Shown: piece by piece, positions 15,345 through 29,673 of the stretch
How positions within the stretch are numbered: position 1 is the first letter of the stretch
Layout of the letters: each line of letters opens with the position of its first letter
Assembly: GCA_000091165.1 (NCBI GenBank)
Contig: FP565575.1
Coordinates: forward strand, 1,740,001 to 1,772,000
Direction: 5' to 3'
DNA: 32,000 bases
From: Candidatus Methylomirabilis oxygeniifera
GTDB lineage: Bacteria > Methylomirabilota > Methylomirabilia > Methylomirabilales > Methylomirabilaceae
Notes under the pieces: model-generated
Told to the model about the DNA's origin: nothing
Database searches by the model: none
The model's input: the letters and a program-made list of their open reading frames with translations, nothing else
Position numbers and translations under genes: made by a program

Positions 15345-16322
15345 CTATCTGCCGGCAACGAAGTACAAGCCGGCGGTAGCGACACGCTTGGGCAGGACGC
15401 CCTTCTCCGCGTACAGATCGGCCAGTGTCTGAACCGAATCGCGGTCCATGGTATCGGGGCCCCAGTTGTCATAAAGGGCCACCTTCGCCACGATGTTGGA
15501 GTCAACCGGCGCGTACTTCAGGAACGTGAGCGCCGCTTCCTCTGGATGCGCCTTGAGGAACTGGTGTGCCGCCGTCAGTCCCGCAATGATCCTTCCTACG
15601 ACCTTCGGTTTCTCGGTGGCCATGCGTGCCGAGACAACACTGACCGCGGTCGGGAAGGGCTTCTGGATGAATTCATAGAGGGGGTTGACCGAGATTGTGC
15701 GTGCGAGACCTTTTGACTCAAGAAGCGTCCCGGTCGGTTCCAGACAGAACAAGGCGTCCACCTGTCCGCTCTCAAGAGCTTGCGGTTGCAGTGGCGGTTT
15801 CAGTTGAACGATCTCGACTTCGCGCTCGGCGTCGAAGTACCGTCCGAGGATCAACTTCAAGAAGACCACCATTTGCGAGCCGGGGAAGGTTCCGACCTTC
15901 TTGCCCCTCAAGTCGGCCAACGTCTTAATGGGCGAATCCGTCTTGACGACGATCCGGTGAACCTTCGTGTCCGCGGTCGCCGCAGTCATTTCGATGATGC
16001 GGAACTGGTCCGGGGTGTTTGCCTCAAGGGCAAGGGCCGCTTCAAGAGCGACTATGGCGGTTGCGTCAATCCGTCCAGCGATCAGCGCTTCCAACGCCTG
16101 ATTGCTCGTCTCGAACTTGATCGGCTCGACCTGTAGTCCCCGCGCCTTGAAGAGGCCCTTCTCGACGGCCACAAAGAAACTCGCGTCCGAGGTGATCGGC
16201 AGATACCCCATGCGGACGCTCTCCATCGTCTCCGGCGGTTGACTGCGCCGGCAAGAGAAGACGAAGATTGCCGCACAAGCCAACCCGACGACCAGTAGAC
16301 GAACGAACGCTCTCCTATTCAT
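15345..16322 (-). CDS. ABC transporter substrate-binding lipoprotein (NMT1/SsuA/TauA-like)
   Basis: MNRRAFVRLLVVGLACAAIFVFSC is a signal peptide plus lipobox. VRMGYLPITSDASFFVAVEKGLFKARGL ... LRGKKVGTFPGS is a typical NMT1/SsuA-like pattern. I placed the start at the internal ATG at 16322. Confidence 0.88.
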   Translation of the reverse strand: MNRRAFVRLLVVGLACAAIFVFSCRRSQPPETMESVRMGYLPITSDASFFVAVEKGLFKARGLQVEPIKFETSNQALEALIAGRIDATAIVALEAALALEANTPDQFRIIEMTAATADTKVHRIVVKTDSPIKTLADLRGKKVGTFPGSQMVVFLKLILGRYFDAEREVEIVQLKPPLQPQALESGQVDALFCLEPTGTLLESKGLARTISVNPLYEFIQKPFPTAVSVVSARMATEKPKVVGRIIAGLTAAHQFLKAHPEEAALTFLKYAPVDSNIVAKVALYDNWGPDTMDRDSVQTLADLYAEKGVLPKRVATAGLYFVAGR

Positions 16323-16983
16323 ACCGCTTCCTTTCTGCCAGAACCAAGACTGACCATACCACACCTTCAAATCCGGATCACCGCCTAACCGACCTCGTAG
16401 TCGATCTATCTTCTCCATGGCAAGGGGTGAAGGTTCTCCATAATGTGTTACTTATGTCCCTGAACATCTGTCACTCTTGACTCCGGTCTGTACACCTTCT
16501 GGGGGAGGGAGATCAACTGCTTCAGGGAGAAGAGGCCGGAGACGGTCAAGGGCCGAAACTTGACATGCAACGAGGCCAGGAACTCCCACACCCTTCCCGT
16601 TGCCGCCTGTTCTCGCTCCTCGAGGAGCACCCAGAAATCCTAAGATGACTCGCTTCTCGGGGACGGTTAGCGGTGTATACACCTCGAAGCTATAGCCTCA
16701 TGACGGTCTTCTGCGGCATCTCCAGCCGACGACGGGCAATATGGCCTTTCCTCAGATTCTCGGCGTCCTCAGACACTCGACATCATAACGACTCCATCTT
16801 CAATCAGCCTAGTACAGATTACGGAGTAATCTATACCCTCTGCAGCAGCAAGCGCGATTCCCGAGAGCACCGTTAACCTACACTCCAGCGCCTGACACTT
16901 ACGATCAACGGCCACGAAAAACGGGCCGCCGTATCGCTTTGTTGGGCATCAATCCCCATTAACAAATCGTCTACATTCAGCCA

Positions 16984-19900
16984 TTATCGGTCGTCGAAGA
17001 TATCTCTTTGCGACTCTCTCTCAGCATCACGTTCGTATCCTTCGGCCAAGCTGCGAACTGCGTCAGCCACTCTGTGAAAGCCACTATCGGAAAGCGCCTT
17101 GGCTTTCACCCGATAATCTACTGCGATCTGTCTTTCCTGTTTACCATGGGAGAAGCCATGGGTCCCACGTTTGTTAAATAGGCCAGCTGTAAAGCCTCGC
17201 CGCATCTCTGGTACATCCCTTACGTCCAGAGCCGCCGCGATAGATTTGTGGATCCAAAGGCCTCCGGGGTCTTGCGGCGCATACGCCAGCGCTTGTCCCA
17301 ACTGATCCATAGCGATCCGAAAATATCCAGACTCCTTACAGCGCCTCTTCACCTCGTCCAGCCACTTCGCAAATCTATCGCCATCGAAGCTGCCGTCCGG
17401 CAACGAACCAGGAAGGATGCGCCATCCGTGCAGCAACGAATACGCATTTTGAGCGATTCGCTTCTGGGCCTCGCTGATTTCTCGCTTCGTTTCCTGATCC
17501 TCCTTGTCCGAACAAAATACGACTGCAAGAACTTCGCAGAAGAACGTCGGGGATGATGCCAGCTTATGTTCGAGCACCTTAGGTTCGCCACCGTATAATC
17601 GATTTAGGAGCGGTAGATAGTACCATTCAATCTTAGAGAGATCGTCCGAATCCGGGGGCGCATTTTCTTGCAGCCATTTAACCACCTCGACAATGTGGTA
17701 TTGATCGATTTGTTTTTGTTGTTCCTCTGCACTCAATGCACCTAACAAGGCGGCTGACGCGAGCGGCATCGGGATGGGCACCTTCCCGTCCGCGAGCAAG
17801 TAAAGGCAATCTATGGCCCTCGCTGGCTGCCCATTTGAGGTCAACTTTTCGGCAGCTTCCAGTAAGTCGTCCGGCTCCATACCCCACGGGCTGACCTGAA
17901 CCTGCTTCCAGTAGCTATGGGCCTCGCCCCCAAGGATTCTTTCTGCCCGGCGCCAAGTCTGCTTCTCAGAAGGCACTAGTAAGAGGAAGGCCAAGAGCTG
18001 TTCCTTCCGCCAAGGTTGGCTCAGTTGTTGATCAACCCATGGCCACTTTTGCGTCCAAAATCGCCGCCATACAAAGTTGCCCAGAAACTGCTTGATGGGT
18101 CTATCGCCGTGCTCTAGGAATGCCGGCAACAGGAATGCATCTATGTTGGAATCTTCTATCGCGCCTAACGCATCCCCTACCTTTTGTGGTGACTCAACCT
18201 GTTGTGCGAATTGAATGACTCCATCCACGCCTTTGACGCCCAGGATTGCTTTAATTGCATCCTGTCGAATGTGATCTAGCCTCTGTCGTTCCTGCTCATA
18301 ATTTCCCTTTTCTTCGTACAAATCAAAATCACGCTCGGTGAATAGTCGCCGGTTGGCAAGCTCGAAAGACGCTGGAGCTAACCAGCGCGCCACCTCCTCA
18401 ATCTTCGCGACACGCTCCGCTGGCATCGCCCATTGAGCGTCTGCATACTTCCGGTGCTTCAATGCGATGTCCTTTAACGCCTCCCAGAGCGGCACGCGAT
18501 CCGCTTCAGGAAGCGACGTAACAGCTGAAGACGATAAGTGATTCAACACCTGAGAGTGCGCTGGTTCAGGCAAGTCTCCCAGGCGATCTACCAGCTGGGC
18601 AAGTTTGTCCAGCTGGCGTGCGGCGATCTGTGTACACATCTCAGCATAGAGCTGAACTTGTGCCCAATATTGAGCGATCGTAACTGTTTCCTTCCATCCG
18701 GGCGGGATAAGTGATCGCCAAATCGGCTTGCGTGTACCGGACGTTGCCCCATGGAAGCTGGGAAGTAGGCTGACCAATACATTCCAAGCAACCTCAGGGT
18801 GTTCGCGAAGCAATGATTCCAGCGCGCTTCTCCGGACCGGTAGGTCGGCGAGCGTTTGGGCAAGCCATGGAAGAAAGATATCGACCAGTGAATTGCGAGG
18901 TCGATTGGCCCAACTACCGCCAGGATCTATAGAGGCTAAGTCTCCGAGCAGAGTAGTTACGCGTCCTAGATAATCTGGATGCCACGCAAGGGTCTCAAGC
19001 GCCCAAAGGGTCCCAGTAATGTAATTCTGGCCGCCCAAGGGGCCTCCGCCCTCCTGCCGAAAAATGTCAATAAAGGGGCTGGTGGCTGGATCTTCGACTG
19101 CCGCCTCGACAGCATCGAGAAACTCGTCAGGCGCAGCCTCAGCAAGAAGTGGCATCTCATTGTTGAGGCTCGCCCATGTTAGCCAGTCCGCCTCGTGTAA
19201 TAGCTTGCGCACGACAAGCCTTGCAGTTCCTTCAGCCTTGCCCTGTGAAGTGGATGACAGGGCGTTTGCTTTTGCTCCGAGTAAGGTTAACGACTCGACT
19301 ACTCCTTCACGAATTAAACGCGAGTGGGCCAGCACCTTTCCATGTATAGAAGCCGCATAGCGTTCATCCTTTGGAAGGTCAAATTGCGGGTCCTTCTCCC
19401 CCAATATCCGCAACGCCATCTTTTGAAAGCGATCAAGGTCTTCGTCGGTCATCCTCGGTCCGAGCGCCGACCACGCTTCACCGCGAGAGATGACTTTCCA
19501 TACTTCATTTCGCTGGATAAGGGGAGGGTCCGCGCGCAATGTCTCAGCTCTGACTTCCTCGATCCACTCCCCGTAGGCTTTTCCCAGGAGAATCTCCATC
19601 GCTTCTCTGTCCGCCGCACTGTCGCCTTTCCATTTTCCAACCATGGATGCCTGTGCCAACAGGCGTGCGTTTTCCCAAGTGGCATAGGGCGGCAGTTCGC
19701 CCAGTCCGCGAAGGAAGCGTTTCAATGCAGCCAGGCTCTGCGCTCCAGCGCTCGCCAATTCAGCAGCCCGTTCTTGGGCAAAGCCGCTATCAATTAGAGT
19801 CGTCTCGATCAGGCTACGTGAGGGGCTCATTATTGGAACGAGTTTTTCAGCGCCGTGTGACCAGGCGCCGGAAACCGAGAAGATGATGCCGTGACCTCGT

Positions 19901-20793
19901 GTACGCGCCGCCAGGTGTAGCTGCTCATTCGAATCAGCTAAGTCCAGTCTCGGACTTGCCACCAGGATGTGAAAGCACCGCAAATTGGAAAAGGTATGCC
20001 ACGCGTCGGGGTCGGAGATGAATAAACACCGGCTGCTAAAGGCACGCCGCGTGTTCTCATCCAACGACTCCAGAAATGCGGCGACGAAATCTTCTGCATC
20101 GTTTTCACTCTCCACGGAAAGAATCAATTGCTGAGTTTCGTGACGGAAGAGGCGCTCAAGTTGCAGGCAGGCGTTTTCTCGTCCCGCGAGGAAAATCTTG
20201 GGCGGTAACGGGGGGTCGTCCTTGCCACCCAACTGCGCGAGGTGCGACCAGTGCTCAGCCGGTGTTTGGAATCCTGCGAGAGCTTTGACTAGGCCGATGC
20301 GCTGAAGCAGCCATTTCCCCATAGCTGGGAATTCGCGCAGCCACTCGCACAGTTGCACTCCATCAATGACCTTGACCTCCTTCCAGCCATCCCCCTGCCG
20401 CTTCTGAATCCAGGCAGCTTGGGATGGCTGGTCCCAGCCCCTGCTTCTTGGTGTTACAAAGACAAACGTTACGTCCGCCCGCTCCGCTACCGGCGTTTCG
20501 TCAGTTCGCTTCGTGTAGTTTTCTGTTGCCCTACCCTGAGCATCTGCGCCACGACTAATTTCCCAATAACTCGTTTGCTTGGGAACGAATTGCCGAAAGC
20601 CGCCTTCCGTTTGAACCATGCCATCAAGTCCTGGTAATCCGATTGCGTCGCCGTATGGAATTCGGCACAAGGTCAAATCTGGCACGGAAAAGTTTACGAG
20701 TTGAGCGACTAGCTCCGGTATTACCGGCTCACTGTCGCGTCGATCAGCGAAGTCTTCTAACTCGCTTGCCGTAACTAGCTTCGTATGCTCCAT
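16984..20793 (-). CDS. 1269-aa hypothetical protein: N-terminal alpha/beta domain plus long helical-repeat-like body
   Basis: It is a long uninterrupted ORF with AGGAG 6 nt upstream of the ATG. I found no Walker A, DEAD, HxH, HKD or other catalytic motif by eye. After about residue 170 the composition is Leu/Ala/Glu-rich. Confidence 0.85.
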   Translation of the reverse strand: MEHTKLVTASELEDFADRRDSEPVIPELVAQLVNFSVPDLTLCRIPYGDAIGLPGLDGMVQTEGGFRQFVPKQTSYWEISRGADAQGRATENYTKRTDETPVAERADVTFVFVTPRSRGWDQPSQAAWIQKRQGDGWKEVKVIDGVQLCEWLREFPAMGKWLLQRIGLVKALAGFQTPAEHWSHLAQLGGKDDPPLPPKIFLAGRENACLQLERLFRHETQQLILSVESENDAEDFVAAFLESLDENTRRAFSSRCLFISDPDAWHTFSNLRCFHILVASPRLDLADSNEQLHLAARTRGHGIIFSVSGAWSHGAEKLVPIMSPSRSLIETTLIDSGFAQERAAELASAGAQSLAALKRFLRGLGELPPYATWENARLLAQASMVGKWKGDSAADREAMEILLGKAYGEWIEEVRAETLRADPPLIQRNEVWKVISRGEAWSALGPRMTDEDLDRFQKMALRILGEKDPQFDLPKDERYAASIHGKVLAHSRLIREGVVESLTLLGAKANALSSTSQGKAEGTARLVVRKLLHEADWLTWASLNNEMPLLAEAAPDEFLDAVEAAVEDPATSPFIDIFRQEGGGPLGGQNYITGTLWALETLAWHPDYLGRVTTLLGDLASIDPGGSWANRPRNSLVDIFLPWLAQTLADLPVRRSALESLLREHPEVAWNVLVSLLPSFHGATSGTRKPIWRSLIPPGWKETVTIAQYWAQVQLYAEMCTQIAARQLDKLAQLVDRLGDLPEPAHSQVLNHLSSSAVTSLPEADRVPLWEALKDIALKHRKYADAQWAMPAERVAKIEEVARWLAPASFELANRRLFTERDFDLYEEKGNYEQERQRLDHIRQDAIKAILGVKGVDGVIQFAQQVESPQKVGDALGAIEDSNIDAFLLPAFLEHGDRPIKQFLGNFVWRRFWTQKWPWVDQQLSQPWRKEQLLAFLLLVPSEKQTWRRAERILGGEAHSYWKQVQVSPWGMEPDDLLEAAEKLTSNGQPARAIDCLYLLADGKVPIPMPLASAALLGALSAEEQQKQIDQYHIVEVVKWLQENAPPDSDDLSKIEWYYLPLLNRLYGGEPKVLEHKLASSPTFFCEVLAVVFCSDKEDQETKREISEAQKRIAQNAYSLLHGWRILPGSLPDGSFDGDRFAKWLDEVKRRCKESGYFRIAMDQLGQALAYAPQDPGGLWIHKSIAAALDVRDVPEMRRGFTAGLFNKRGTHGFSHGKQERQIAVDYRVKAKALSDSGFHRVADAVRSLAEGYERDAERESQRDIFDDR

Positions 20794-20802
20794 GGGAGAC
20801 TC

Positions 20803-20988
20803 CTAGTTACGGGGGTGGAATCTACACTTCGCTCGGTAGTAGACGCGGTTCTCGTAAGCATCACTAACCTCCACTTTGACACCTCGCGTGCGGCCTCCAG
20901 AGAGCCTCCAGATGATCACTTCGAGCCGGTGCACTGCGCTCAACAGGTCCTGGCCCTCTTTCTTGCGTATTCCGATCAAAGTTGCCAC
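20803..20988 (-). CDS. Possible 61-aa protein between the helicase and the giant gene
   Basis: It starts at a GTG 20 nt after the helicase stop. Its TAG stop overlaps the AGGAG Shine-Dalgarno sequence of the 1269-aa gene (aacTAGGAGtctcccATG). Its composition is more protein-like than the alternative frame, but its own RBS is weak. Confidence 0.3.
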   Translation of the reverse strand: MATLIGIRKKEGQDLLSAVHRLEVIIWRLSGGRTRGVKVEVSDAYENRVYYRAKCRFHPRN

Positions 20989-21008
20989 TCATTCCGGCTT
21001 TCCACACC

Positions 21009-23081
21009 TCACATCCGCAAATCATCCAGGAATTCCGATGCCGGGGCGACGCTGGTGACGAGCAGATGATCCCTTGCGCGGGTGCATGCGACATAGAGAA
21101 GGTGGCGTTCGGTGTTGTACACATCTTCCAGATCCGCGTCGTCCGTCACTGTCTCGATTCGTTCCTGCAGGGGAATGACCTCATCATCACAAGCCATCAC
21201 GACGACTGCTCGGAACTCGAGGCCCTTGGCGAGATGCATGGTGCTGATCGACACGTGGCCGCTGGTTGTTTCGACTTGTTCATCCAGTATCTTGAAGGTG
21301 AGCCCCGCTTCTTTGACGGCTGCAAGCGCTCGGTCCAGCTCCGCCGCAGATCGAACAAATACACCGAACTCGTGGGGTGCTACGCCGTCCTTCTTGAGGT
21401 CCATAATCCATTTGCTGACCGTAGCCTTCTCGGTTTCGAGGCTGTCACAAACCCTGATTGTCGGTGCGGGACCGTTGAACACAGAGATGGTGTTGCTCCG
21501 ATCCTCCGTATTGCCGTCCGCATCGGTCACTTCTGGAGCCAGCAATCGATCTGCCTGCATGCGGATCTGGTGGGAGGTTCGGTAATTGACGTGCAGGGTC
21601 CGGGCACGCCCGCGGATATCGATGCCCAGTGCGAGCCACGAGAAGGGTTGTTGGAAGATGCGTTGACCAAGATCGCCTGCAAAGAACAGGCTGTTCGGTC
21701 GATCCGCCCCGAGCGCAGCAATGAACCGCAAATGAGCCACGCTCATGTCTTGGGCCTCGTCCACGACGGCAAAGTCGAAGGGCGGATGTTTACTTTCGGC
21801 TACAACAGCGGCCAGTCTGCTGAACATGCCCGAGCCTGTGATCAGGTTCCCTGCCGCCAGGCGCGCACGGACATGATCGAAAATAGACCAGAGCACAACG
21901 CGCTGCTTCTCCGGTAGCCGCGTCTTTCTGCCCAGCCGCCTGACATCGCGATACGCCTCCCATGTTTCCAACTGCCACGCATCGACGACTTGCTTCCACT
22001 CCGTCAGCAAGAAGGGCAGGCTAAATTTATGGCCGGTAACTTCTGCGGCTGCCTCCTTCAGGAGTTCCAGCACTGTGACCTGCGACACGATCTGCGATTG
22101 GCCGAGGTGAGGTTTGAAGAGCCGATGGCCAATGGCATCGATGGAATGCACCTCCAGACGTTCGGCCAAACGCGGTTCGTTGCTGACCAGCCGCCTGAGT
22201 TGTATTCGGAGAGCATTCGCCAGGATGTCTGAAAAGGTGGTGAGCAACACTCTGGCATCGGGGTTGGCGCGGGTCAGAAAGACGGCCCGATGCAAGGCGA
22301 CGATGGTCTTTCCTGTACCCGCCGAGCCGGAGACCCGCGCGGGGCCGTTGTAGTCGCGCTCGACCCATTGGCGTTGTGCCGGATGGAGAAAGACCGTCCA
22401 TTTGTCCCAGGGATAGTCGAGGGCCCGCTGCAACTCCTCGATGTTGTTCATGACCCGGAATCGACGCTGAGCATCCGGGTGAGCAAACGGATCGGTTCCG
22501 GTGGGGACGGGCTTGGCGACGTCCGGCTTCCCGCCGGTGGCGAGTTCCAGCAGCGCTTCAGCCGCTTCACTCGGTAAATGATCCGCCAATGCCAGCAAGG
22601 TGTCCTCCGTGGCTTGTCGAACATCATTCAGCCACCCCAGTGGCACACCGTAGTTCAGCAGGCAATCGTCGGACACCTCAGCGAATAGGCGCGGTTTAGG
22701 TGGAGCCGGCTGTTGAGTCTCGACGTATGCAGGGATAATGATTTCCTGGACCGTCTCCCGCACCTCAACCAACTGAGCAGCCCCGGTCTTTGGGTGTGTC
22801 TCCAACTTCCGGCGCTCAGCCCAGCGATAGGCGTTATCGTGGTGATCGACATAGCAGAGCAAGAGGCTCTCATCGCTCCTGTGGACAATGAGCCGGATAT
22901 CGTCGTTGACATACACCGACCAGAATTTCTTATCCCTGGCCTTATCGAGCTTGTGGAAACTCATGCCGGGATGAGCCGGATTCATTTGCAAGTCAAAGGC
23001 CGTAGTCTTTACGGCCTTCTGCTCGTCACCGGTCAACCGGGCCAGGCTGTCGGTGAAGGTGTCTGCGATTCGAAAGTCCAT
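21009..23081 (-). CDS. UvrD/Rep-like SF1 helicase with an N-terminal RelE/ParE-like domain
   Basis: Walker A is GSAGTGKT (aa 252-259). Motif II is FAVVDEAQDMS. FFAGDLGQRIF, VNYRTSHQI, TMHLAKGLEFRAVVV and YVACTRARDHLLVT are also present. The N-terminal ~95 aa read FHKLDKARDKKFWSVYVNDDIRLIVHRSDESLLLCYVDHHDNAYRWA. Confidence 0.9.
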   Translation of the reverse strand: MDFRIADTFTDSLARLTGDEQKAVKTTAFDLQMNPAHPGMSFHKLDKARDKKFWSVYVNDDIRLIVHRSDESLLLCYVDHHDNAYRWAERRKLETHPKTGAAQLVEVRETVQEIIIPAYVETQQPAPPKPRLFAEVSDDCLLNYGVPLGWLNDVRQATEDTLLALADHLPSEAAEALLELATGGKPDVAKPVPTGTDPFAHPDAQRRFRVMNNIEELQRALDYPWDKWTVFLHPAQRQWVERDYNGPARVSGSAGTGKTIVALHRAVFLTRANPDARVLLTTFSDILANALRIQLRRLVSNEPRLAERLEVHSIDAIGHRLFKPHLGQSQIVSQVTVLELLKEAAAEVTGHKFSLPFLLTEWKQVVDAWQLETWEAYRDVRRLGRKTRLPEKQRVVLWSIFDHVRARLAAGNLITGSGMFSRLAAVVAESKHPPFDFAVVDEAQDMSVAHLRFIAALGADRPNSLFFAGDLGQRIFQQPFSWLALGIDIRGRARTLHVNYRTSHQIRMQADRLLAPEVTDADGNTEDRSNTISVFNGPAPTIRVCDSLETEKATVSKWIMDLKKDGVAPHEFGVFVRSAAELDRALAAVKEAGLTFKILDEQVETTSGHVSISTMHLAKGLEFRAVVVMACDDEVIPLQERIETVTDDADLEDVYNTERHLLYVACTRARDHLLVTSVAPASEFLDDLRM

Positions 23082-23115
23082 GAGTATGTCTCTATACCCT
23101 CGCGCCTACGGCTCG

Positions 23116-26100
23116 TCAGAGTCCATATTTCCGCTTCCGATTAACGAAGGCTGGCTCTGTTCCTTCAAGAATCTCCACGACTCTGGCCTTGATCTCGCTG
23201 GACTCGATAGCGCCTGAGATGTATCCAAATAGATTGTTGGCTTTGTCGCAGCTAGCGCAAATGATCTGCTCGGCATCGCAAACCACTGCCAAATTCGGAT
23301 TGTGCGTGACCATGATTACTTGGCGGCGCTGCTTCGCCGCTTTGATACACGTAACGAGAATCTTGTAAATCGTCTGGTTGTCGAGATTCTCCTCCGGCTG
23401 GTCGATAATCAGAGGTATGTCGTCCTTATCCACCAAGAGATAGAACACCAGCAGGAGCAATCCGCGCTCGCCTGGAGAGAGTCGCCCGATCTCTTGACCG
23501 CCATAGGTCAATGAATATCGCGGCTGTAAATAGCTCAATCCAAACAGGAAGTCATATACGTCTTTCACCTCACTGTGTTTCCGAAGCTGATCGCTCGGCT
23601 GCATCTCGTTTCCACCGCCGTCTTCGCGACGGTCAACGTGCAACATGTCATCGATGCGACTCACAAACTGAACCGTTTCTTCCGAATCGCCGAAATCTGT
23701 TTCCCGGAGAATGCCGTGAATCAGTTGATTGCTTTCCTCGATGCCCGAGAAGCTCCCCCGCGTTTGACGATTGATCATGGCCAGAAAATGCTGCTGGAAT
23801 CCCTCCTCCGCGATCCTCACGTTGAAAGCAAGGGGCAACGGCATCTCCATGTTGGCGGCGGACTGAACGAATCCTTGCACCGGCTGGTATAGCCGCTTAT
23901 ATTCCGCAACCGTCTTTTCGATCTGCTCATGTAGGCGTCGAACCACCGCAATACGTTCCTCTCGCAACTGATTGCGCTTCGCTGGAAGCTGAGCAAGCTC
24001 CTGTATTTCCGCTTCGAACCACGAAATCGAGTGGACTTTCTCTCTCGCGCCGATTAGTTCCGCTTTGGCACGCTTCCACTGCGAGACCTGTTCCTGATAC
24101 ACAACGTAAAGACGCTGCTTCTCACTAAGCTTGCTCTTGATTGCCTTGACCTCGGATTCAGCGGTCTCTCGCCGCTTGGTAATGCCGGTTGCTTCTTGGC
24201 TGTTGAGGATCTTATCTTGCGCTACGATCTCCGCTTTCATCGCAGCGCCGATGCTGTCCAGCTTCGAGGTATCCACTTTGAGCGAAACAACGTCATCGGT
24301 CGAAAGACTGCTATCGATCTCGACGAGTGTCATTTTCAGGTTGGCCAAGAATTGCTCATGCGCCTTCTCATGATTTGTGAGTGCCTGCAAGACGCGATTC
24401 ACTAAGGCCGCACGTTTGGTCGCACCCGCTTTCTTTTCGCGAGCCACCCGTTCCTCATCGCGGATCGCAGCAAGCTGGCCTCCCAGCTCCTGTAATCTGG
24501 CCGTCGCAGCAGCGGCTTCGGCTTTCGCGGCGTCGGACGCGGTCGGATCCTCAACTACCGCAGGCCTTGCGCTCTCCAGTGCCTGCAACTCTTTGCGCTT
24601 ACCTTCGAGCTGGGTTTCCAGGCTGAGCCGAAAATTCGGCGCCAGTCGCCTTTCTATGGTGTTTATTTCGTCGTTGAGCTTGGATAGCTGTTGCGCTACC
24701 TGCTCGCGCTCGCGCTCGATCTCCTCGACCTTGAAATTCAGAAGATCATCGAGGGAAATGAAATCGAGCTTCTCTTCCTCTGGCACATGCGTATAAATAA
24801 TCTTTCGCAATTCGCTGTCGAAGGTAGACGAACCGACGCCGCCGAGTTCATTGCAGAGTGCTTCGAGATAGCTTTGCGGAAGATATTTGACCCGTTCTAC
24901 ATCCGACGGTGCGGGGTTCTGGTGAAGTTCGCGCGTGGAGTCGGTTCCGTCCTGCCATCGAAGGGTGCCTGCGAACTGGGCTGCGAGCCTGCTCTTCGGG
25001 TCGCGGAATCGATCCTCAGTCAGAAAGGAGAACTTCTCATAGTTCTTGGTATTCCCAGCGAGCGCTGCTATGTCGGCTAGGGCGCTCTTACCACTGCCCT
25101 TGTTCCCGATAATTGCGACGAGATCATGATTCAGCGGCAGGTTAACGTCGAACCATGTATCGGGCAGGGCAGACCCTGCCTTCTTCTTGATCGTGATGGC
25201 AGAGGCATATTTGGTTCGATTTGCGGCAACGAGTTGATACTTCGGAGGCACATCGCCGACGAAGACGCGCTGATCGAATTCCGTTACGGCCTGACGCAGA
25301 CCCTCGAACGTCGAATCCGCTTTTATCCAGGTGAAGCAATGGCCAATTCGATCTTTGCTTTCAGACGTGCTCAGGGCGTGAGCATCTGAGCAATCGAGAA
25401 GCTTGCTGTTGACGTGTGAGTCCGCAAGCCGTTTTCGCGCGGTCTCGTAGGACTCGGGATTCGGAGCTGCGGTGAATACAAGCTGAACACCATTGATGAC
25501 GTTGCGCTTCTCGGCTATCGATTGATCATCCCACTTCATGTTCTCCCATTCGGTCTTGCCAACGGCTAACAGATAGCGATTCGTCAGTGTGTGATTGTCT
25601 AGAGCCTGAACGATTGATTCCAAACTTACGCAGAGGTTGTTGAAGCCCTCCTGCAATGGGGCGCCGTAGGCTGCTTTCTTATCGGCCGGAGCAGCGCCGA
25701 TAATCCTCTGTCCAAGATCCTTCAAACTGGCCAGGGTAATCACCGCCTGCCATTTCCCTTTCAGGTGGGTGGAATCCGGGATTAGATTATAATAAGGTGC
25801 AAGCGCATTCAGGAATTGTTGGCGGATAATCTCTGGATCGAGCTCGTCGAAGATGACGTGGAGATTGATCCTATTCCAGTCCGATTGAGAATAGTTTCCG
25901 TGTTCGTCTTTCTTGACTACGCCGGCAAATTTGTCCAAGCGGAATTCAACGACTGGAAGAATCAGGTCAATGTTCGTCAAACGGCCTCGTTCACGCTTTT
26001 CTATCAGGACTCGCTCGTAGCCCTCTATGAAAATGTAGTCGTTGATGCCGATGACTTTGAACTCAGGTGAAAGCTTTTCGAGGTCGGCTAAGAAAGCCTC

Positions 26101-26208
26101 CCACGCTACCTCCGTATTACCACCGTAGTTCTGCACGATTGAGGAGGGGCTGTGGACGTGGAGATCCCACTTCTTCCATGTTGAGCCAGCAGGATTGTTG
26201 TTGCTCAC
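23116..26208 (-). CDS. PHP-domain phosphoesterase fused to an ABC/SMC-like coiled-coil ATPase (Ppl/TrlF-like architecture)
   Basis: The PHP HxH motif is WDLHVHSPSS (nt 26152-26160), with GINDY and CSDAHA. Walker A is IIGNKGSGKS (nt 25084-25107). A segment of about 280 aa is coiled-coil-like and rich in E, K, A and L. The signature-like motif is LSPGERG, Walker B is PLIIDQPEENLD, and the H-loop is VIMVTHNPN. Confidence 0.9.
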   Translation of the reverse strand: MSNNNPAGSTWKKWDLHVHSPSSIVQNYGGNTEVAWEAFLADLEKLSPEFKVIGINDYIFIEGYERVLIEKRERGRLTNIDLILPVVEFRLDKFAGVVKKDEHGNYSQSDWNRINLHVIFDELDPEIIRQQFLNALAPYYNLIPDSTHLKGKWQAVITLASLKDLGQRIIGAAPADKKAAYGAPLQEGFNNLCVSLESIVQALDNHTLTNRYLLAVGKTEWENMKWDDQSIAEKRNVINGVQLVFTAAPNPESYETARKRLADSHVNSKLLDCSDAHALSTSESKDRIGHCFTWIKADSTFEGLRQAVTEFDQRVFVGDVPPKYQLVAANRTKYASAITIKKKAGSALPDTWFDVNLPLNHDLVAIIGNKGSGKSALADIAALAGNTKNYEKFSFLTEDRFRDPKSRLAAQFAGTLRWQDGTDSTRELHQNPAPSDVERVKYLPQSYLEALCNELGGVGSSTFDSELRKIIYTHVPEEEKLDFISLDDLLNFKVEEIEREREQVAQQLSKLNDEINTIERRLAPNFRLSLETQLEGKRKELQALESARPAVVEDPTASDAAKAEAAAATARLQELGGQLAAIRDEERVAREKKAGATKRAALVNRVLQALTNHEKAHEQFLANLKMTLVEIDSSLSTDDVVSLKVDTSKLDSIGAAMKAEIVAQDKILNSQEATGITKRRETAESEVKAIKSKLSEKQRLYVVYQEQVSQWKRAKAELIGAREKVHSISWFEAEIQELAQLPAKRNQLREERIAVVRRLHEQIEKTVAEYKRLYQPVQGFVQSAANMEMPLPLAFNVRIAEEGFQQHFLAMINRQTRGSFSGIEESNQLIHGILRETDFGDSEETVQFVSRIDDMLHVDRREDGGGNEMQPSDQLRKHSEVKDVYDFLFGLSYLQPRYSLTYGGQEIGRLSPGERGLLLLVFYLLVDKDDIPLIIDQPEENLDNQTIYKILVTCIKAAKQRRQVIMVTHNPNLAVVCDAEQIICASCDKANNLFGYISGAIESSEIKARVVEILEGTEPAFVNRKRKYGL

Positions 26209-26268: not shown

Positions 26269-29091
26269 TCATACCCTAAACACCTTCATCACTTCGTCGC
26301 CGAGGTGGTTGATGACCTTCACGGCAATACGGCCGGATTTCGGTTTAGGGAAGGATCGCGAGGTGTCGCTATTGAGCGTGGCCCAGGCTTCCTCATTGAT
26401 CTCGGCTTTGAGCGTGGTCTTCAGCGCGCTGTAGGGGTCGTTCGCACCGAGGAAATAGGCGTGGCGAACGAAGAAGCTCTCTTCGTTGTAGTCGGTATCG
26501 ATGAACCAGCAGGCGATGCCATCGGCGCTGTCGCTGCGGACTTCGCCGGTTTGGGGATGGAAGACGTCCACGCCATTGACCTTTACCCGTATCTGGCCGT
26601 CTTCGGCCGGCAGGATGTCTATGTCAGGCTCGCCGAAGATCACGAAGAGGTTGCCTTTGCCGGTGTTCTTGAGATCGTCGGCCATGTGCAGGTCGGCATT
26701 CATCCGCGCCTTGAGCACGGGAATGCGGCCGAGTTTGGTGAACTCTGTGGCGTGAGCCTCGTAATTGAAGGCGCAGGCGATCAACACGTCGAAATCGGCA
26801 TCGCCAGCCTCGCGGGCGGCAGCTACCAGATCGGGTCGGGTGACGGTGCCGAATTCCGGACCGATGAAGATGGCGGCGCGCTTTTCGGTACCCGATTCCG
26901 GATTGCCTTCGAAGTAGCGGCCTTCGGCGCACACGAAGTAGCCCGGCCATGGCGTGAGCGCGGTAAAGGTGATGCGATCTTCCTTATGCGCTTGCTGGAC
27001 TCCGGCGGTCTTGAGGTTCTCCAGAATCATCTGGGGAAAGGTCTGCTTCTCTCCGTAGCCGGTGCCGATATCCGACACGCGGTCGATCAATTCATCGTTT
27101 TCATCCACCCCGAGTACACGATGCGGCGAGAGGCTTTCGACGGTGAAGGGACCGGCCACGCGGACCTTCTTCCTGTCCTCGTAGGGCTTGTCGTAGAGGT
27201 ATTCACACTCAGCCTTAGCGGCGATGGAGGCATCGATCTCCTTCTGTCGGGCGATGCGGGCCTCCCACCAGTCGGCGTGCAGCTTTTTGGCGGGCGCGGG
27301 CCACGCGGTCTCCGCTTCGCGTGGTATCTCCCATTCCTGCCAGGTCTTCTTGAGTGCGGAGTTCAATGCCTCGCGCAACGGCTCCAGCTTCGCCTGCCAC
27401 TTCTCCCAGATGACGTCGATCTCCGCGTTGTTGGCGATGGACTTGAGGGTGATGTGCGGCACACGCTCATAGACGAAGCCGTGGCGGATGTTCCCCTGCA
27501 CCGGCTGAGAACTCGCCAGAGTGCGGGTGACTTCGGCTTCCTTAAGCTGGCCTTCGCGAGAATCGGCCAGCAGGTAAAACGGATACCGCGCGCCCATGAT
27601 GCGGGCACGGGCCAGCGCCAGCGCTACGCGCGAGGTATCGATGGTGATCCAACGCCGCCCCCATTGTTCGGCGACATAGGCTGTGGTGCCAGAACCGCAG
27701 GTCGGGTCGAGCACGAGGTCGCCGGGATCAGTGGTCATCAAGATGCAGCGCTTGATAACTTCTGCGGCTGTTTGAACAACGTAAATTCTCTCCGTTCCGA
27801 TTTGAGTTGATTCCCACCGATCCGTAATTGGCAACATCGGAACATCGCCCACAAACCTTTTGTAGCGTATTGTGTTTGCTGTCCGCTCGATGCGCGACGA
27901 CTGCGCGATGCGCCGCAGGCCGATCTGTGTAGTTTTCCAATGGGTACCCTTGCGGATGGAGAAGGATTCTCCAAACCAGTTGAACGTCCGTGAACCGCCC
28001 TCAGATTCACCCTCCGAATAGAGCGGAAATAGTTGGAACCTCTTTAACTCGTCGATGCCAGAACCAGGAAGTTTCTCGTCCCTTGTCAAAGGGCGACTCG
28101 TGAACTCGTCGTCCTGATATTGGTCGTACCGATCAAGTGAGGTGTGTCCTGCTCTTCGATCAGTCAGCAAGCCTCGGTATTTTGCTGAGTTTCGCTCCTT
28201 CAAGTACCACAAGACGTAATCGACGGTGTTTGACAGAAATTCGCTCTCGAAGCCGCCTGTTTTCTGGAACGAGATAAGGACAACGAAGTTCTTTTCCCCA
28301 AACACCTCATCCATCACCGCCCGAACGCGATGCACGTTTTCATCACCGATCTGCACGAAGATGGAGCCGGAGTCGGTGAGGAGGTCGCGGGCGACGGCGA
28401 GGCGGTCGCGGAGATAGGTGAGATAGCTGTGGATGCCGTCGCGCCAGGTGTCGCGGAAGGCCTTGACCTGCTCCGGCTCGCGGGTGATGTGGTCGGCCTT
28501 GCCGTCCTTCACATCGCGGCTGGTGGTGCTCCACTGGAAATTGCTGTTGAATTTGATGCCGTAGGGCGGGTCGAAGAAGATGCACTGCACCTTCCCGCGC
28601 AGGCCCTCGCGCTCGGCCAGGCTGGCCATGACCTGGAGGGAGTCGCCGAGGATCATGCGGTTCGACCAGTTCTGGTCGTGCCGGTAGAATTCGGTCTTGT
28701 CCACGCCCTCGGGGACGCCGTTGAAGTCGGCGAACAGATCGAATTGCGGGGCCGCAGCCTTTGCGTCGAGCTTGGTCTGACGTATGAGGTCATCGATCAG
28801 CGCCTTGGGGTGGACTTTTTCCTGGATGTAGAGCGGCGGGGCGTGAACGACGAGGTCGCTCCAGTCCTGCTCATCCTTGCCGCGCCAGACGAGCTGTGGA
28901 TCGAGATCGCGGTTTCGACCTGCCTTTTCTTCTTTCAGCCCGGCTACGCCGCGCTGCAGGGCCACGCGCACCGGGTCCTGCTCCGCCTTTTGCAGGACCG
29001 ATTGGTACTCGGCGGTGGGGATGTTCTTCCTCGTGGCCTCGTCGTGCTTGAGCGCTTCAACGGATTTGCTGGTGGTTGGTTTCTTGGCCAT
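26269..29091 (-). CDS. mod: Type III-like DNA methyltransferase (beta-class N6A/N4C), Mod subunit
   Basis: Motif IV FFDPPYG comes before motif I LDPTCGSGTT, which is the beta permutation. About 440 aa follow motif I. I placed the start at the ATG at 29091 (MAKKPTTSK..., AAGGA upstream). The longer track ORF start lies inside a 9-mer repeat array. Confidence 0.9.
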   Translation of the reverse strand: MAKKPTTSKSVEALKHDEATRKNIPTAEYQSVLQKAEQDPVRVALQRGVAGLKEEKAGRNRDLDPQLVWRGKDEQDWSDLVVHAPPLYIQEKVHPKALIDDLIRQTKLDAKAAAPQFDLFADFNGVPEGVDKTEFYRHDQNWSNRMILGDSLQVMASLAEREGLRGKVQCIFFDPPYGIKFNSNFQWSTTSRDVKDGKADHITREPEQVKAFRDTWRDGIHSYLTYLRDRLAVARDLLTDSGSIFVQIGDENVHRVRAVMDEVFGEKNFVVLISFQKTGGFESEFLSNTVDYVLWYLKERNSAKYRGLLTDRRAGHTSLDRYDQYQDDEFTSRPLTRDEKLPGSGIDELKRFQLFPLYSEGESEGGSRTFNWFGESFSIRKGTHWKTTQIGLRRIAQSSRIERTANTIRYKRFVGDVPMLPITDRWESTQIGTERIYVVQTAAEVIKRCILMTTDPGDLVLDPTCGSGTTAYVAEQWGRRWITIDTSRVALALARARIMGARYPFYLLADSREGQLKEAEVTRTLASSQPVQGNIRHGFVYERVPHITLKSIANNAEIDVIWEKWQAKLEPLREALNSALKKTWQEWEIPREAETAWPAPAKKLHADWWEARIARQKEIDASIAAKAECEYLYDKPYEDRKKVRVAGPFTVESLSPHRVLGVDENDELIDRVSDIGTGYGEKQTFPQMILENLKTAGVQQAHKEDRITFTALTPWPGYFVCAEGRYFEGNPESGTEKRAAIFIGPEFGTVTRPDLVAAAREAGDADFDVLIACAFNYEAHATEFTKLGRIPVLKARMNADLHMADDLKNTGKGNLFVIFGEPDIDILPAEDGQIRVKVNGVDVFHPQTGEVRSDSADGIACWFIDTDYNEESFFVRHAYFLGANDPYSALKTTLKAEINEEAWATLNSDTSRSFPKPKSGRIAVKVINHLGDEVMKVFRV

Positions 29092-29183
29092 AGTTTTTAT
29101 CCTTGCTGTCCCATATTTCTTATATCTACAGTGCTGTCCTGCCCCTTTGTTGCCCCTTCGCAAAAGGTCTGCCATGTTTTCCC

Positions 29184-29274
29184 ATGAGGCGTTTGTCCTC
29201 ATGAGGCATATGAGGCATTCTTGAGGCATTTGGAATGTCTATGCCATGAGGCATATGAGTCATAATTGAGGTAT
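29184..29274. repeat. Array of seven WTGAGGCAT 9-mers (two triplet units of about 29 bp plus one solo copy)
   Basis: The copies are at 29184-29192 (ATGAGGCGT), 29201-29209 and 29210-29218 (ATGAGGCAT twice), 29221-29229 (TTGAGGCAT), 29246-29254 (ATGAGGCAT), 29255-29263 (ATGAGTCAT) and 29266-29274 (TTGAGGTAT). Confidence 0.75.
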
Positions 29275-29673
29275 CACCTTTGCCTTGACATAAAAAGCTC
29301 CTCGGCGTTCACCTCGCTGTTCAAGGATTCCTTTCTTCACCATATCGTCCAAGTCGCGTGTTGCTGTCTGACGACTTATCCTCGTCTCTTCCTGATACCT
29401 TCCGCTTGTGAGTCGTCCTTCTGACCCCAGAAGGGCCAGCCCGGCTAACTGCCTCTCATTCAGATGAAAACTGGCCAGCACCTCCGCCGTCAGCCAATCT
29501 CGCCAGAGGGTGATGACGAACGAGCCCGCGCGTTGTTCGAATTGCGGCTCGGGCAGTCCGGCCTCGCGGTGCAGGAAGGCATCGCCGAGAAGAAAGGCCT
29601 TCAAATCCAGGCGAATTTGTTTGAATTCCTTCTGAATGCTGCTGATGAATATTTTCAGACGTACCGGCTTCAC
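29260..29673 (-). CDS. Small winged-HTH protein, apparently an internally deleted relative of larger AlbA_2/HATPase_c_4-type regulators
   Basis: The N-terminus reads KIFISSIQKEFKQIRLDLKAFLLGDAFL. It joins directly to EAGLPEPQFEQRAGSFVITLWR and then LNERQLAGLALLGSEGRLTSGRYQEETRISRQTATRDLDDMVKKGILEQRGERRGAFY (wHTH). Its GTG start overlaps the res stop (GTGA). Confidence 0.6.
   Translation of the reverse strand: MKPVRLKIFISSIQKEFKQIRLDLKAFLLGDAFLHREAGLPEPQFEQRAGSFVITLWRDWLTAEVLASFHLNERQLAGLALLGSEGRLTSGRYQEETRISRQTATRDLDDMVKKGILEQRGERRGAFYVKAKVIPQL

Follow-up and report, generated by a model that had tools for sequence, protein, structure and literature searches.

What role might a 1269-amino acid (aa) protein play that carries no recognizable enzymatic signature and is encoded downstream of restriction-modification (R-M) genes? 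The question is raised by a gene in a 32,000-nucleotide stretch of the genome of Candidatus Methylomirabilis oxygeniifera (contig FP565575.1, positions 1,740,001 to 1,772,000), to which we refer as the window. The gene occupies 16984..20793 on the minus strand as an uninterrupted open reading frame (ORF) with an ATG start, 1269 codons, and a stop codon, an autonomous single-gene cassette; direct reading of the sequence also revealed a Shine-Dalgarno-like AGGAG at 20800..20804 (minus strand), 6 nt 5′ of the ATG. As a preliminary description of this DNA had stated, it is the largest gene in the window (the largest complete ORF there), and its product is indeed rich in Leu, Ala, Glu, and Trp (11.6, 10.9, 7.7, and 3.2%, respectively). 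The same protein, with a 100% identical sequence, is found in a metagenome-assembled genome (MAG) of Ca. Methylomirabilis oxygeniifera as F9K13_06980.

We lean toward the view that the 1269-aa protein is an autonomous, single-polypeptide sensor-effector of the bacterial conflict or defense type that works without an NTPase. The data establish its architecture, the swapping of effectors within its family, the autonomy of the gene, and the defense-type contexts in which relatives occur. A sensor or scaffold in defense that lacks the usual STAND NTPase had been suggested beforehand, and the effector swaps, the defense contexts, and the lack of any NTPase motif or domain all support that suggestion. 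Other parts of the initial picture fared less well: the protein is not an orphan, it probably does carry an enzymatic head, and the genes next to it turned out to be neighbors by island co-location only.

A large family with a constant C-terminal module

Far from being an orphan, the protein belongs to a very large family. A word-indexed search returned at least 569 homologs, and the 120 that were listed, nearly all ~1265 aa long, came from Nitrospirota, Omnitrophota, Geobacter, Verrucomicrobiota, Gallionella, and others. An exhaustive HMMER search of 50%-identity representatives yielded 6,232 sequences at E ≤ 1e-3 and 2,909 at E ≤ 1e-30. When genomes, one per species, were scanned for the motifs LWALETLAW and IDPGGxWANRPxNS, at least 464 loci were found, spread over numerous bacterial phyla and including a few archaea. 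Relatives also occurred on 24 plasmid records, 11 of them conjugative, and on 13 viral or prophage contigs, and PHROG 18693, a family of unknown function, matched along the full length of the protein. Profile searches gave no confident placement in any characterized family, and a literature search by accession, PHROG identifier, and architecture keywords returned no earlier description of this one.

Curated libraries did not recognize the protein. Searches against Pfam, NCBIfam, PADLOC, and the sequences of the PDB gave zero matches; AAA_16, NACHT, NB-ARC, and nSTAND were among the Pfam models without a match, and none of the Pfam HEAT or TPR repeat models reached the gathering threshold on the protein or on the family profiles. 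A literal motif scan found no Walker A, DEAD/DEAH, HKD, or SIR2 GAGxS motif, and the pattern [GA]xxxxGK[ST] occurred nowhere in the protein. Regular-expression matches to PD-(D/E)xK were all located in helical regions and were discarded as chance.

To obtain structural models, AlphaFold2 was run on family alignments, with residues 1 to 200 and 181 to 1269 modeled separately. The first ~170 residues were predicted to form the mixed alpha/beta domain that had been anticipated from the sequence [predicted local distance difference test (pLDDT) of 86 for residues 1 to 200]. The second model (pLDDT 84) showed an alpha/beta region at residues ~206 to 320, followed by helices throughout. The expectation of helical repeats for the whole remainder was accordingly right from residue ~340 onward, where the model is all-helical with HEAT/ARM matches, and it had missed an alpha/beta domain at residues ~195 to 340. 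Foldseek comparison of the helical part with the PDB gave 48 matches at E ≤ 1e-3, all of them HEAT/ARM proteins with template-modeling (TM) scores of ~0.15 to 0.22, the best being CAND1, FANCI, karyopherins, and SF3B1 (E = 2e-5 to 1e-3). On these models, we place the constant C-terminal module (C-module; residues ~375 to 1269, 16987..19671, minus strand), the putative sensor, in the HEAT/ARM alpha-solenoid fold class; its sequence had no match in Pfam, NCBIfam, PADLOC, or the PDB.

Sequence conservation divides this module into two parts. Mean pairwise identity was 0.41 in the N-terminal domain, 0.43 for residues 375 to 700, and 0.30 for residues 701 to 1000, and conservation within the C-module peaked in the 551 to 650 bins. 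The most conserved stretch, at residues ~540 to 700 (18694..19176, minus strand), includes invariant alignment columns and contains both LWALETLAW and IDPGGxWANRPxNS, and the most variable one, judged by pairwise identity, spans residues ~701 to 1050 (17644..18693, minus strand). Such a pattern would fit a module in which the conserved half has a structural or relay function and the more variable half serves recognition, a conjecture in which residues ~701 to 1050 would be a candidate ligand-facing surface.

Most informative was the exchange of N-termini. Among the 148 representatives P0121 to P0268, 59 shared with our protein only residues ~375 to 1269, and their N-termini were unrelated to its own. 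In these proteins, the C-module was fused to at least 11 recognized effector or adaptor domains of conflict systems: PNP_UDP_1, SIR2_2, Metallophos, Trypsin_2, and GT4-conflict in a first set, and FRG, Abi_C, SMEK_N, Schlafen/AlbA_2 (SLFN_AlbA_2), NNH5 (a NACHT N-terminal helical domain), and DUF4062 in a second. Domains of this kind are known as effectors and adaptors on bacterial NLR-like proteins. The SIR2 domain of one relative (P0175) matched the SPARSA NADase. The largest swapped group, 37 of the 59, carried a domain of ~290 aa that has no annotation and displays a canonical DD...QIKHS motif. Some relatives bore an additional N-terminal XRE-type helix-turn-helix (HTH), and in a split form, the N-terminal domain was missing altogether and a GapS6a-family gene preceded instead. 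DUF4062 has been experimentally shown to be an NADase defense effector (bioRxiv 10.64898/2026.05.01.722283). We rejected a kinship with Swarozyc, a DUF4062 system, where the sensor is a small winged-helix domain and not a solenoid. As a separate observation, the PADLOC model PD-Lambda-4_A matched 5 of 37 diverse relatives (best E = 3.5e-5) and may correspond to the unannotated ~290-aa domain (D...QxK) at the N-terminus of the largest swapped group.

We consider this modularity the decisive evidence for a sensor-effector. The family is very large and horizontally mobile, with a constant ~900-aa solenoid and interchangeable N-terminal domains. These properties also bear on the idea that the protein is a HEAT-repeat scaffold with a housekeeping function and no part in conflict, which could be entertained because HEAT proteins with housekeeping roles in eukaryotes are its best structural matches and because some homologs lie among housekeeping genes only. 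A patchy distribution over phyla and archaea that resembles horizontal gene transfer (HGT), copies on plasmids and prophages and embedded in R-M operons, and N-termini exchanged among toxic effectors leave that idea with a negligible chance.

The middle alpha/beta domain (residues ~195 to 340; 19774..20211, minus strand) is predicted to be a parallel beta-alpha fold, seen in the AlphaFold2 model at residues 206 to 320. It behaves as a companion of the solenoid in a sub-clade, where the first domain is REase-like (for restriction endonuclease-like), Metallophos (P0159), SIR2 (P0256), or trypsin (P0181); most other swapped relatives lack it. It is also the least conserved region, with a mean pairwise identity of 31%. 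The stretch FLxGRE...ESExDAEDF...CLFISDxDAW looks STAND-like. The position of a P-loop, between beta1 and alpha1, is taken by an acidic loop, ESENDAED, with no Walker A, and D261 and D263 are not strongly conserved; we do not claim a degenerate STAND NTPase here. The sole profile signal in the domain was a weak match to Pfam TRI4_N at residues 217 to 249 (window ~20047 to 20145), over beta1, the loop, and alpha1, in 12 of 34 members (best E = 0.0017).

The N-terminal domain as a putative nuclease

Residues 1 to 170 (20284..20793, minus strand) fill the slot that is taken by enzymatic effectors in relatives. The predicted structure appears to contain an REase-like alpha-beta-beta-beta-alpha-beta core (H24-36, E40-43, E59-62, E73-79, H85-99, and E108-113), and four conserved positions form a putative active site that spans 20530..20715 (minus strand): E27 (20713-20715), D57 (20623-20625), E78 (20560-20562), and position 88 (20530-20532), which is Lys in the family and Arg in the window copy. 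D57 was kept in 66 of 66 diverse and 115 of 115 close relatives, E78 in 65 of the 66 diverse relatives, E27 in 114 of the 115 close ones, and K88 in 63 of 66 and 111 of 115; R44, Y47, K95, R96, T114, and D144 were conserved as well in these two sets. In the model, E27 lies on the first core helix, D57 just before beta2, E78 at the end of beta3, and K88 at the opening of the next helix. This layout is likely that of a PD-(D/E)xK nuclease whose lysine is shifted off the beta3 strand.

Weaker signals pointed in the same direction. REase-fold proteins recurred among the nonsignificant Foldseek matches of the domain, namely Mus81/XPF, EcoT38I, the N-terminus of Avs4 (one of the better matches; TMq 0.46, E = 0.76), Can2, a phage "restriction endonuclease" (probability 0.75), an Mrr-domain protein, and Rpb5. 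The domain's hidden Markov model (HMM) further matched the N-terminus of an otherwise unrelated 1281-aa Rhizobium protein (E = 1.4e-6 among 3,566 ORFs), and a weak pairwise alignment (E = 0.014) set the EDG...FQCK of that protein opposite LDG...WEIS of ours. Homology to the N-terminus of the largest swapped group (P0183 type, GGGGxxFE...DD...QIKHS) was rejected (hhalign probability 0.2). Residues 1 to 200 had no Pfam, NCBIfam, or PADLOC match even at E ≤ 1. Because of the conserved layout, the recurring if weak REase-fold matches, and the related EDG...FQCK domain, we regard a restriction-endonuclease fold as likely, if unproven. The earlier statement that the protein lacks any catalytic or NTPase motif is literally true for a motif scan, and it overlooked the apparent REase-like topology with its conserved E27, D57, E78, and K88.

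The window copy itself deviates from the family at three positions. Its Arg88 was unique among the 115 close relatives, where Lys is found in 111, including the 91% identical P0002; N92 replaces an Asp present in 97 of the 115, and S80 a Gly present in 107. Since an Arg stands in for the conserved Lys88, the nuclease of this copy may be attenuated, and the three residues could reflect attenuation, lineage variation, or a consensus error in the MAG. A stronger version of the first option would make the window copy a catalytically dead or decaying relic whose N-terminal domain is inactivated by K88R, D92N, and G80S. The singular Arg88 and the departure of N92 and S80 from the majority would fit a relic. 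We find this fairly unlikely all the same: the ORF is full-length without frameshift or stop, every other invariant residue is kept, and the K-to-R substitution is conservative. The occurrence of N92 and S80 in several close relatives (P0002, P0004, and P0006) moreover suggests that the lineage varies at these sites and is not decaying, and a MAG consensus error could account for the deviation instead.

Genomic surroundings of the gene and its relatives

The contexts of relatives argue for a gene that functions on its own. When the four ORFs to either side of the homolog were clustered without bias at 87 loci, no universal neighbor emerged, and in seven distinct contexts on long contigs, the gene stands alone. 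Two candidate partners, a small downstream ORF and an upstream HTH gene, were dismissed, as neither is conserved; in particular, no conserved downstream small ORF was found in the homolog loci. R-M was the single theme that recurred among the neighbors. R-M genes (Type I hsdM/hsdS/hsdR or Eco57I-type IIG) adjoined the homolog on the same strand in 17 of 87 loci, and at several of these (L021, L052, L074, and L091), the homolog sits between hsdS and hsdR. Elsewhere, we observed toxin-antitoxin (TA) pairs, Fic, integrases, nSTAND, AAA_13, Mrr, RES-Xre, Abi, and AbiEii. The link to defense genes that had been surmised from the window alone was hence seen among homologs too, at the 17 R-M loci as well as in TA, plasmid, and P2-hotspot contexts.

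The R-M loci bring up the alternative of a PrrC-like guard, which would monitor an R-M complex or phage anti-restriction proteins and fire when restriction is disabled. Such a guard would explain the 17 loci with an adjacent, same-strand R-M system, the location downstream of a Type III system in the window, and the several copies between hsdS and hsdR, an interval that we take to be the position of prrC in the EcoprrI locus. Against it stand the ~80% of loci that lack an adjacent R-M gene and the close relatives in R-M-free contexts. The associated R-M types also differ (I, IIG, and III), which argues against a specific physical partnership, and R-M operons are general landing sites for defense genes. 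We consider a guard function rather improbable.

The split form provided another telling context. In E. coli O39:NM F8704-2, GapS6a (106 aa, NF047935) and a 930-aa protein consisting of the C-module only are encoded together (L107, 5681-8799) at the ogr/gene D hotspot of the P2 prophage, and the same pair was found on plasmids NZ_CP033075.1 and NZ_CP146976.1. Distant GapS6a homologs from Vibrio and Pantoea (L098 to L102 were examined) pair with an unrelated 1116-aa protein. GapS6a therefore seems to act as a portable small subunit, with no fewer than two different large partners.

Mobile elements suggest yet another role, that of an addiction or exclusion factor which would stabilize plasmids or act against them, rather than defend against phage. 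Relatives on 24 plasmids (11 conjugative), next to ParA/ParB and TA modules, would be in line with this, as would the fused or adjacent XRE-type HTH of some subfamilies, which is TA-like, and copies within transposon-like regions. However, most copies are chromosomal, a conserved antitoxin-like partner is missing, and one relative occupies a P2 prophage defense hotspot together with the anti-phage GapS6a; the effector repertoire is, furthermore, that of phage-sensing NLR-like proteins. We deem an addiction role improbable.

Two loci deserve separate mention. On the Rhizobium leguminosarum plasmid pPR4 (L011, 7656-17027), three genes lie in tandem within a Tn-like region (TniB and Mu transposase): an HTH_3-fused full-length homolog of 1372 aa; the unrelated 1281-aa protein whose N-terminus, with a canonical EDG...FQCK, is homologous to that of our protein; and a 415-aa protein with a weak CAP12/Pycsar TIR match. 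The 1281-aa protein was rejected as a conserved partner, as it is missing in Thalassospira. At L005/L006 (14421-18128), a homolog is accompanied by a PGAP1-like hydrolase with CTD8, an MC4 protein, and a 661-aa protein, and the Pfam names at this locus are the ones used for a ternary conflict system.

In the window, the genes upstream of the 1269-aa gene all share its orientation, in the order Res, winged HTH, Mod, TrlF, and UvrD. The Res-like ORF (29670->32000, minus strand) leaves the window at its end and had only weak matches to RE_endonuc and REase_III; a 137-aa winged-helix or MarR-like ORF (29260-29673, minus strand) lies between it and the Type III Mod gene (26269-29229, minus strand; PADLOC MTase_III, 1463 bits). 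The next gene encodes a TrlF-family AAA-like ATPase (23116-26208, minus strand; NCBIfam NF045780, 703 bits; Ppl-like in PADLOC), a family named for the Photorhabdus trlG-trlF-trlR "temperature restriction locus." Next comes the gene for a UvrD-like helicase of 690 aa, extended at its N-terminus by ~230 aa (21009-23081, minus strand), for which the best PADLOC match was "NERD+UvrD," along with many GajB models. The TrlF and UvrD genes (21009-26208) look like a separate two-gene defense module of the Gabija or Ppl type. A gap of 215 bp separates the UvrD-like gene from ours and is consistent with a promoter that belongs to the 1269-aa gene itself; a consensus scan found no promoter in this gap, and promoter and terminator scans around the gene were uninformative. 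Downstream, the 565 bp from the stop of the gene to the next one (16419-16983) contain no ORF of at least 80 aa on either strand, and the adjoining gene encodes an NMT1-type ABC substrate-binding protein (15345-16418) that is housekeeping-like. GC content drops to 0.52 to 0.56 across 16000-26000 (our gene, UvrD, and TrlF) as compared to 0.58 to 0.63 in most of the flanking sequence, consistent with a horizontally acquired island. No tRNA genes were found in the window.

Given this arrangement, the 1269-aa protein might be a scaffold that serves as the third or fourth component of one system with Mod/Res, TrlF, and UvrD. The shared orientation directly downstream of these genes across a mere 215 bp and the lowered GC content over 16 to 26 kb could be read in this way. 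The homologs indicate otherwise: tblastn searches with the window UvrD, TrlF, winged-HTH, and Res proteins against ~100 homolog loci gave no match, Mod gave only distant methyltransferase matches (23 to 28% identity) at two loci (L041 and L047), relatives at 85% and 81% identity reside in other islands with entirely different neighbors, and the unbiased clustering shows no universal partner. A joint system is very unlikely. Since TrlF and UvrD never recur beside homologs and relatives of 81% and 85% identity live elsewhere, we interpret the arrangement in the window as island co-location rather than as one system.

A scheme for an NTPase-free sensor-effector can then be proposed. In the resting state, the solenoid would suppress the N-terminal domain. 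A ligand that arises from infection, most probably a phage protein, would then bind; this binding and/or oligomerization driven by the ligand would release the N-terminal nuclease, and the freed nuclease would degrade DNA, so that phage replication is halted either directly or through death of the host cell (abortive infection). ATP hydrolysis would play no part, which would make the mechanism resemble Dsr1 and DSR2 rather than STAND/Avs proteins. The gene would have landed in a defense island behind a Type III R-M system and a TrlF/UvrD pair and would work independently of them.

Several points weigh against this scheme. The likely nuclease assignment draws on predicted topology and conserved residues: the canonical Lys is missing at E78+2, which is Gly or Ser; its proposed substitute, K88, is Arg in the window copy; the domain has no Pfam PD-(D/E)xK match; and all of its Foldseek matches had E ≥ 0.07. 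For the solenoid, a sensor role is suggested by architecture and analogy, and the structures that it matches best belong to generic HEAT proteins of eukaryotes, at TM scores of ~0.2. As for the contexts, ~80% of loci have no adjacent R-M gene, several homologs are flanked by housekeeping genes only, and the counts of defense contexts are raw numbers that are not scaled to genome background. Finally, the literature search returned no experimentally tested member of the family.

Comparison with known defense systems

On our best reading, Dsr1 and DSR2 are the nearest functional analogs of the 1269-aa protein. A TPR-like Avs7 sensor of ~960 aa is common to the STAND protein Avs7, the STAND-less Dsr1, and a Streptomyces HEPN protein (Lee et al., Nature 2026, PMC13581612). 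According to the same work, Avs7 itself is linked to at least 20 N-terminal effector types, and the set of Avs7-type sensors comprises 9,097 proteins, detects the phage major capsid protein, and displays extensive HGT with split forms included (PMC13581612). Dsr1 and our family are alike in that a single polypeptide combines an N-terminal effector with a helical, TPR- or HEAT-like sensor of ~900 aa and no NTPase; both the Dsr1 type and our family swap many effectors, including SIR2 and HEPN types, have split forms, and are widely spread by HGT. They differ in that we found no link in sequence or fold (Dsr1 HMM, PDB sequences, and Foldseek) and in that the subfamily studied here has an REase-like head and a middle alpha/beta domain, which are not mentioned in the main text of PMC13581612.

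How deep this likeness goes can be framed in two ways. In the more specific one, the C-module would be a member of the Avs7/Dsr1 superfamily and recognize the HK97-fold major capsid protein, possibly with EF-Tu as a co-factor, and the protein would already be among the 9,097 of Supplementary Table 8 in PMC13581612. Relatives with SIR2- and HEPN/Abi_C-type domains, the split forms, and the huge size of the family match the published description. Membership is nonetheless doubtful. None of 37 diverse members matched Dsr1 in PADLOC at E ≤ 1 (assuming that a Dsr1 model is present there), and the SIR2-bearing P0175 was not labeled Dsr1 by PADLOC or NCBIfam. Family profiles A1 and A4 gave no match to PDB sequences at E ≤ 10, and no Avs or DSR chain was among the top 50 Foldseek matches in the PDB, the presence of the SeAvs7 entries 9N00/9N01 (a further one is 9YIX) being unconfirmed in both cases. 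In addition, 0 of the 150 best representatives carried a STAND NTPase. We tentatively entertain the other possibility, short of favoring it outright, that the C-module defines a second superfamily of NTPase-independent pattern-recognition modules, unrelated to Avs7/Dsr1 and with its own trigger, which would serve more than 12 effector types and include a new REase-fold head and a P-loop-less alpha/beta adaptor, in thousands of clusters from bacteria and some archaea.

DSR2 resembles the proposed protein in its N-terminal enzyme, its C-terminal alpha-solenoid, and its ATPase-free activation, with an alpha-solenoid that binds a phage structural protein directly (PMC11850899). It differs in its SIR2 NADase effector, its length of ~1000 aa, and its trigger, the tail tube protein. 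Our protein has no SIR2 motif or Pfam match, and no DSR2 chain was in the Foldseek top 50; the Dsr2 model was not among the PADLOC families found for 37 relatives, and the 1269-aa protein, which lacks any PADLOC match, consequently has none to Dsr2.

Avs and NLR-like STAND proteins, such as Avs4 with its Mrr-like nuclease (PDB 8DGF), share the order of effector, alpha/beta center, and helical sensor. Their N-terminal repertoire is also the same, with SIR2, nucleases, proteases, Schlafen, NNH, and DUF4062. The NTPase that defines them (Walker A, AAA_16, NACHT, or NB-ARC) is absent from our protein, in which the P-loop site reads ESENDAED. The tripartite STAND-like layout with swapped N-terminal effectors is present, and it speaks for a similar way of working, not for membership.

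Two further systems are more distant. GAPS6, a system from GMT islands, is experimentally anti-phage, and its GAPS6b component is described as TPR+PIN (Mahata et al., bioRxiv 10.1101/2023.03.28.534373). It shares with our family only that of the small subunit, through the split form paired with GapS6a; no GapS6a homolog was found in the window or beside any full-length homolog. Homology to GAPS6b was rejected, since the C-module aligned with the 1116-aa partners of distant GapS6a, presumed to be GAPS6b-like, at an hhalign probability below 1%. PrrC, an ABC-ATPase joined to an anticodon nuclease, is located like several of our homologs between hsdS and hsdR of Type I operons. It has no domain in common with our protein, and most homologs are not R-M-linked.

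What is likely new here is the uncharacterized head with its predicted REase fold, the additional alpha/beta domain without a P-loop, and a solenoid that curated libraries do not recognize. No Pfam, NCBIfam, or PADLOC model covers the family, and we found no structure or experiment. Current defense-annotation tools miss it wholly, which leaves the islands that hold it under-annotated. If our interpretation is true, the family would be among the more abundant immune-receptor-like families still without a name. The hypothesis lends itself to direct testing, since tractable homologs are available in E. coli (an intact one of 1182 aa lies at NZ_CP060748.1, 3598027-3601575), in Shewanella (S. baltica WP_014615232.1, also intact), and in Rhizobium. 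The fusion of an effector to a sensor free of NTPase is itself of an already known kind. The STAND NTPase has long been considered central to NLR-type immunity, and the family would, if it works as proposed, add to the evidence from Dsr1 and DSR2 that helical sensors can serve many effectors without it.

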